NCBI RefSeq assembly: GCF_003334315.1
Contig: NZ_QOWR01000091.1
Origin: Escherichia coli
GTDB lineage: Bacteria > Pseudomonadota > Gammaproteobacteria > Enterobacterales > Enterobacteriaceae
DNA: 9,155 bases
Reading direction: 5' to 3' (one strand)
Positions 1,389 through 1,447 of this stretch are shown here, piece by piece; within the stretch, counting starts at the first letter, position 1, and the number at the start of each line of letters is the position of its first letter. The notes under the pieces are model-generated. The model worked only from the letters and a program-made list of their open reading frames with translations. It did not search any database and was not told the origin of the DNA. A program made the translations under genes and the position numbers.

Positions 1389-1416
1389 TTGACTCAGCAA
1401 GGGTTGACCGTATAAT
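1389..1416 (+). promoter_or_regulatory. Near-consensus sigma70 promoter for argU: -35 TTGACT (1389-1394), 16-bp spacer, -10 TATAAT (1411-1416)
   Basis: Read directly from the sequence: TTGACT then 16 bp then TATAAT, about 31 bp upstream of the mature tRNA 5' end at 1448. Predicted transcription start near 1423-1424. Confidence 0.6.
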
Positions 1417-1447
1417 TCACGCGATTACACCGCATTGCGGTATCAAC

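Follow-up and report, generated by a model that had tools for sequence, protein, structure and literature searches.

Positions 1389–1416 of the stretch of Escherichia coli DNA analysed here (9,155 nucleotides; hereafter the window) very probably constitute the sigma-70 promoter of argU (dnaY), a promoter of the stable-RNA type whose output would be regulated rather than constitutive. The regulated, stable-RNA part of this reading is suggested by the arrangement of bases in and around the core elements, which is described below together with their conservation and the published observations on this gene. The promoter and its transcription start site (TSS) are already on record, and nothing about them is new in kind: the argU promoter of E. 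coli K-12 (argUp) has the identical sequence, serves the same gene and has the same TSS (NC_000913.3:564698), nothing in the promoter itself being different; the DNA 3' of the tRNA does differ from K-12, as the strain of the window is without DLP12. The K-12 promoter was reportedly sequenced by Garcia et al. in 1986 and is said to have been mapped by primer extension and S1 analysis by Saxena & Walker in 1992.

The core of the promoter (Table 1) consists of a -35 hexamer that matches TTGACA in five of six bases, as seen both by reading the sequence and in a consensus scan, and a perfect -10 hexamer, in which the A at position 2 and the T at position 6 are both present. The two are separated by the 16-nt spacer CAGCAAGGGTTGACCG, which lies inside the 16–18 bp range of sigma-70, and the tRNA-Arg(UCU) gene begins 31 nt after the end of TATAAT. 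The first-pass annotation had correctly recognised this arrangement as the argU promoter and had called it essentially the consensus, a description that holds for the hexamers, with 11 of 12 bases in agreement, and fails for the spacer, which has 16 bp instead of the optimal 17. A spacer of 17 bp is the optimum for sigma-70, and one of 16 bp is typical of rRNA and tRNA promoters. Across the window, all other sites score at most 9/12 in the consensus scan, and a separate scan of the window likewise returned no further site with at least 10/12 consensus bases; promoter-like sites as such are not in excess in the window as a whole (7 observed vs 9.0 expected).

Table 1. Positions of the argU promoter elements, transcript leader and tRNA gene in the window
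Feature	Position	Strand	Remarks
A-tract AAAA, 5' of the -35	1381–1384	+	candidate proximal UP-element subsite (alpha C-terminal domain)
-35 hexamer TTGACT	1389–1394	+	5/6 consensus; kept across taxa
Spacer, 16 nt	1395–1410	+	conserved ends, variable core
TGACCG block adjoining the -10	1405–1410	+	five of the six bases of TTGACC (1404–1409)
-10 hexamer TATAAT	1411–1416	+	6/6 consensus
Discriminator TCACGC	1417–1422	+	GC-rich; C as second base after the -10 (C1418)
Transcription start, G	1423	+	Cappable-seq, MG1655
5' leader of the argU precursor, 25 nt	1423–1447	+	contains hairpin 1429–1441
argU, tRNA-Arg(UCU)	1448–1524	+	ARAGORN; Rfam RF00005; RefSeq tRNA-Arg; MG1655 b0536

The TG at -15/-14 that is the hallmark of extended -10 promoters is absent, the bases at these positions being CC (TGACCG-TATAAT), and the argU promoter is not of the extended -10 type. 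The A-tract upstream of the -35 element (-42 to -39) is a partial match only to the proximal UP consensus AAAAAARNR, and we regard it as a putative UP-element subsite. Nothing in the intergenic DNA between fimZ and argU fits the strict Fis consensus; a relaxed Fis pattern gives matches, for example one centred at -59, and no Fis site is claimed. A divergent minus-strand promoter overlapping the -10 element was considered by eye and rejected, there being no hexamer pair with acceptable spacing.

The gene served by this promoter is the single tRNA that ARAGORN finds in the window, a tRNA-Arg with the anticodon TCT, and Rfam agrees on the same span (72.1 bits). In the RefSeq annotation of an identical strain the gene order is fimZ (-), tRNA-Arg (+), envY (-), ybcH, nfrA, and nfrB. 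An ungapped comparison shows window positions 1322–1526 to be 100% identical to K-12 MG1655, where argU occupies NC_000913.3:564723–564799 and DLP12 is annotated from 564755; from position 1527 onwards it continues into sequence that K-12 has at the far end of DLP12, on the envY side. The window thus represents an E. coli chromosome that lacks the DLP12 prophage, with promoter, leader, and tRNA as in K-12. An empty argU attachment site is seen at 1525–1570, with the junction at about 1527 and the stop codon of the convergent envY 45 nt after the tRNA, at 1570; its counterpart in MG1655 has the 21.3-kb cryptic prophage DLP12 (intD ... ompT) between argU and envY.

The TSS is known experimentally from Cappable-seq, which lists a + strand TSS at U00096.2:563921 with a score of 7.02 (Ettwiller et al., 2016; PMC4782308, supplementary GTF); no other + strand TSS is listed in that GTF between U00096.2 positions 563601 and 565315. 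The GTF is in older MG1655 coordinates, and its offset to NC_000913.3 was calibrated on 67 neighbouring + strand TSSs: an offset of +777 places a purine at +1 in 56 of the 67 (any other offset does so in at most 41) and a TANNNT -10 element at 38 of these 67 calibration TSSs. With this offset the argU TSS is the NC_000913.3 position given above and, because argU is NC_000913.3:564723–564799 and the window is identical to MG1655 over 1322–1526, it falls on G1423 of the window, 25 nt before the mature 5' end of the tRNA. The start is thus, on MG1655 data and in identical sequence, a purine exactly 7 nt past the last base of TATAAT (1416), within the sigma-70 range of 6–9 nt and where the first-pass annotation had expected it (about 7 bp downstream of 1416). 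The Cappable-seq score of 7.0 is modest; it is no measure of promoter strength, since the precursors of tRNAs are short and quickly processed. Two further sources were consulted, and argU was found neither in the supplements of the Kim 2012 TSS paper nor as an entry in those of the Urtecho reporter-assay preprint. A second + strand TSS (U00096.2:563601, window position 1103) lies inside fimZ with a score of 6.5, similar to that of argU; it stands 7 nt after GGTAAT (1091–1096), and a transcript from it would run towards argU, in antisense orientation to the 5' portion of fimZ.

To assess the conservation of the promoter with the tRNA as the sole anchor, nucleotides 1–44 of argU (its E. coli-type 5' half) were used to query a single genome from each species. 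This gave 24 loci, and the orthologues of Salmonella, Klebsiella, and similar organisms were not returned by this query. The enterobacterial loci come from Escherichia species including E. albertii, eight Kluyvera, three Pseudocitrobacter, Superficieibacter, and two further Enterobacteriaceae, and TTGACT-16 nt-TATAAT is present in all of them, the hexamers being invariant in 23/23 sequences. Alignment of the 19 distinct sequences, from at least four genera, shows invariance at -41 to -39 (AAA), -35 to -27 (A-TTGACT-CA, that is, including A1388 and the CA at 1395–1396 that flank the -35 hexamer), -25, -18 to -7 (TGACCG-TATAAT), and -5 (C), with free divergence between genera in the central 8 nt of the spacer, the leader, and the DNA upstream of about -45. 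Four loci from the alphaproteobacteria Neoroseomonas/Roseomonas (L005, L013, L015, and L021) carry a tRNA-Arg(UCU) that is identical to argU over its first 44 nt, preceded by unrelated, GC-rich DNA without TTGACT-16-TATAAT. This shows that the conservation of the enteric promoter is not a by-product of that of the tRNA. Three contigs (L004, L012, and L019) whose labels read Segatella copri MAG, Streptomyces triticisoli, and Collinsella sp. MAG carry an E. coli-type argU promoter, leader, and tRNA; over a compared length of 230 nt, L012 differs from the window by one base. Contamination or mis-binning in the three assemblies is the most likely cause.

Within E. coli, the 601 nt around the promoter match 5425 of 5426 complete genomes, and the 98-nt promoter/leader is found in 5424 of the same 5426, with at least 99% identity in 4199. 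About 1100 complete genomes have a promoter/leader variant at 90–95% identity, in which the hexamers and the spacer are unchanged. These variant genomes have folD directly upstream, the sfm fimbrial operon and fimZ being absent, and keep about 100 nt of promoter-proximal DNA, with a different leader (e.g., L027 and L028; E. coli PBP8 and UID2309220015). A 65-aa 'hypothetical protein' that one of the records places across the promoter is probably a spurious annotation.

A wider sample is available in IMG/VR, whose contigs often include argU because the gene is a prophage integration site. The pattern TTGACTCA-N5..11-TGACCGTATAAT, which admits spacers of 13–19 nt, yielded 43 distinct variants from IMG/VR, and in every one of them that precedes an argU-type tRNA the spacer is exactly 16 nt. 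The single match with a 17-nt spacer (TTGACTCA-N9-TGACCGTATAAT, at 9075–9103 of L050) lies in an AT-rich context with no tRNA nearby and probably either belongs to an unrelated promoter of a phage or has arisen by chance. With a looser pattern (TATAAT, 20–50 nt, tRNA start), about 170 contigs yielded 38 distinct variants of the DNA upstream of an argU-type tRNA; TTGACT stands exactly 16 nt upstream of TATAAT in all 38, the second base after the -10 is C in 37 of them, a CGCG/GGCG motif is conserved in the GC-rich discriminators, and the A-tract directly 5' of the -35 element recurs as well. The six bases before the -10 are mostly TGACCG, a share that is overestimated as some of the pooled contigs had been retrieved by a pattern that itself contained TGACCG, and otherwise GGACCG, AGACCG, CAACCG, TCACCG, or, in two variants, TGTGGG; the last four, ACCG, are kept in 36/38.

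Given these features, we propose that the RNA polymerase holoenzyme would use TTGACT and TATAAT across 16 bp to start at G1423, giving a precursor in which the 25-nt leader precedes the tRNA and would be removed by RNase P, the enzyme that trims tRNA leaders to the mature 5' end (here 1448). The near-consensus hexamers would allow fast recruitment of the polymerase, aided by the A-tract 5' of the -35 element, and the open complex would be short-lived owing to three features acting together: the spacing of 16 bp, the CGCG discriminator, and C1418, with which sigma region 1.2 makes poor contact. The output of argU would then be high in fast growth and lowered by ppGpp/DksA and by low concentrations of the initiating GTP; because a short-lived open complex brings sensitivity to ppGpp/DksA, the initiating NTP, and growth rate, the promoter would not be constitutive. 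The same three features give rRNA P1 promoters and several promoters of tRNA genes their short-lived open complexes and are hallmarks of growth-rate and stringent control, rrnB P1 and tyrT being the models for the role of the discriminator, and this picture of stable-RNA promoter kinetics reportedly goes back to Travers' discriminator and to the Gourse laboratory's studies of rrnB P1 and sigma region 1.2. We take the sub-optimal features of the argU promoter (the 16 bp, the C, and the discriminator) to be probably functional because it is exactly these that evolution keeps fixed. A near-consensus promoter for a 'minor' tRNA would be understandable from the single gene copy and a stable RNA product with no translational amplification: even about 1% of the cellular tRNA would require initiation to be far more frequent than at most promoters of mRNAs.

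The main alternative is the one adopted in the first-pass annotation, namely strong constitutive transcription from a near-consensus sigma-70 promoter with unregulated output. It accords with the 11/12 consensus match, the real TSS at the predicted base, and a sequence in which no site for an activator or a repressor was recognised. Against it stands the evolutionary fixation of just those features that make stable-RNA promoters kinetically regulated (a spacer of 16 rather than 17 bp, C1418, and the discriminator CGCG), and two papers point to regulation. First, argU lies near a site bound by Hha in vivo, and argU RNA falls 3.2–5.6 fold when Hha is overexpressed, with abundant tRNAs unaffected (PMC2408971). 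Second, argU is essential, and in a study that deleted tRNA genes systematically its chromosomal copy could be deleted only in the presence of a plasmid-borne argU under the lpp promoter, the natural promoter having failed to complement even at higher copy number; the authors suggest that the natural argU promoter is tightly regulated (PMC11480407). Other causes are conceivable for the failed plasmid complementation, among them where the fragment was cut and the lack of a terminator. Stable-RNA promoters in general typically form short-lived open complexes (PMC5137449), and the searchable literature yielded no argU data on open-complex kinetics or the response to ppGpp/DksA. Taken together, these observations make an unregulated output improbable, and the claim of constitutive transcription is better replaced by that of a regulated stable-RNA-type promoter, a distinction that would be useful for annotation and for moving argU onto plasmids.

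Judged by sequence criteria, the argU promoter would belong to the stable-RNA class of sigma-70 promoters. It is like rrnB P1 and the rRNA P1 promoters in its TATAAT, 16-bp spacer, C after the -10, GC-rich discriminator, upstream A-rich tract, and stable-RNA product. It departs from rrnB P1 in that its -35 hexamer is closer to the consensus (TTGACT as against TTGTCA) and its discriminator is shorter (6 nt vs 8 nt), and from rRNA P1 promoters in having a partial proximal UP subsite only and no recognisable array of Fis sites, the likeness being one of sequence. Among tRNA promoters, those of tyrT and argX (pArgX) are likewise sigma-70 promoters with GC-rich discriminators, and both are known targets of inhibition by ppGpp. 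The open complexes of pArgX are very stable and it is still inhibited by ppGpp; it also depends on an upstream activating sequence (PMC5137449). The case of pArgX shows that tRNA promoters are heterogeneous and can deviate from the rrnB P1 model.

The argU gene is the only one in E. coli for the tRNA that reads the rare codon AGA, with AGG read together with argW, and it limits the expression of genes rich in AGA/AGG, such as those for fimbrial regulators, prophage genes, and genes for heterologous proteins; it is also a hot spot of prophage integration. Its Salmonella enterica orthologue, fimU, controls type 1 fimbriae via AGA codons in fimY (PMC2408971), and the two are alike in being orthologous tRNA genes next to fim/sfm regulatory genes. 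Many of the IMG/VR variants have an alternative anticodon stem and the same promoter architecture, none of them being positively identified as Salmonella.

The one item that is mildly unexplained is the conserved (T/G)GACCG beside the -10 element. Somewhat less probable even than unregulated output is that this block, with the TGAC repeat 15 bp upstream in the -35 hexamer (TTGACTCA ... TGACCG), forms the operator of a regulator that tunes the supply of the rare tRNA and so is more than a passive stretch of spacer. The invariance of TGACCG in the 19 distinct sequences next to a spacer core that has diverged to saturation, the retention of ACCG in the IMG/VR variants (36/38), and the hints of argU regulation in the literature (PMC2408971, PMC11480407) are consistent with such an operator. 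However, the frequency of TGACCG is inflated by that part of the IMG/VR sample which was retrieved with it, the T at -18 and the G at -17 vary, and bases proximal to the -10 may act through contacts with sigma and beta-prime and through DNA twist with no need for an extra protein. Nor does the block match the ArgR, CRP, FNR, or LexA consensus: in a comparison by eye with their consensus sequences, operators of these four regulators over TGACCGTATAATTCA were rejected for unfit spacing and half-sites. We would rate marginally lower again the broader proposition that the 16-bp spacing, (T/G)GACCG, and the CA after the -35 hexamer together represent an unrecognised promoter sub-element or operator of the Enterobacterales. 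If true, the translation of rare codons in fimbrial, prophage, and horizontally acquired genes would be tied to a specific transcriptional input.

The same block overlaps TTGACC in the spacer, of which the first-pass annotation rightly remarked that it is too close to the -10 to act with it, 1 nt separating the two. That TTGACC might instead be the -35 element of a second, overlapping promoter starting further downstream in the leader is very unlikely: it does agree with the -35 consensus in 5/6 bases, but the hexamers 16–18 nt downstream (TACACC, ACACCG, and CACCGC) agree with TATAAT in at most 3/6 and are without the essential final T, Cappable-seq lists no second + strand TSS in the leader, and many taxa have G in place of the first T of TTGACC. 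With no usable -10 and no second TSS, we reject this promoter. As T1404 is replaced by G in E. albertii, Kluyvera, and Pseudocitrobacter, TTGACC is not a -35-like element under selection; the conserved part is the -10-proximal end of the spacer, (T/G)GACCG and mainly ACCG.

The consensus match was also set against chance expectation in 2000 first-order Markov simulations of the window (16–18 nt spacers, both strands combined). Sites with at least 11/12 consensus bases occur 0.11 times per simulated window, with 10.5% of the windows carrying at least one, and those with at least 10/12 are expected 1.85 times as against one observed, so that the match by itself is only moderately unlikely and is suggestive rather than decisive. 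The expectation falls to about 3e-4 (by arithmetic from the simulations) because the site lies immediately upstream, within about 50 nt, of the only tRNA gene and on the correct strand. That the match is nevertheless fortuitous and argU is transcribed from elsewhere, for instance by read-through from the TSS at window position 1103 in fimZ, is the least credible of the alternatives: sites of at least 11/12 in about 10% of simulated windows and a + strand TSS of similar score 320 nt upstream would be compatible with it, but transcription begins at precisely the expected distance of 7 nt from the -10, both hexamers and the distance between them stay the same from genus to genus, and strains without fimZ, with folD upstream, retain the promoter-proximal ~100 nt.

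The leader of the K-12 type contains the hairpin ACCGC-ATT-GCGGT (fold of the leader -6.9 kcal/mol, z = -2.9), and the predicted primary transcript would have this 5' hairpin followed by the cloverleaf. There is one compensatory change in the hairpin within Escherichia; as a conserved element it was rejected, with z from +0.3 to -2.4 in other taxa and one leader unstructured. Between the last base of the -10 and the tRNA there are 24 to 50 nt, depending on the taxon (24 to 44 nt in the 19 aligned sequences), and the sequence of the leader diverges as well. Downstream of the gene, no intrinsic terminator is predicted between the 3' end of the tRNA and the convergent envY stop codon (1570). Past the tRNA, nothing terminator-like occurs on the + strand before a weak hairpin at 1682–1695, which lies inside envY, so that any read-through from argU would be antisense to the 3' end of that gene.
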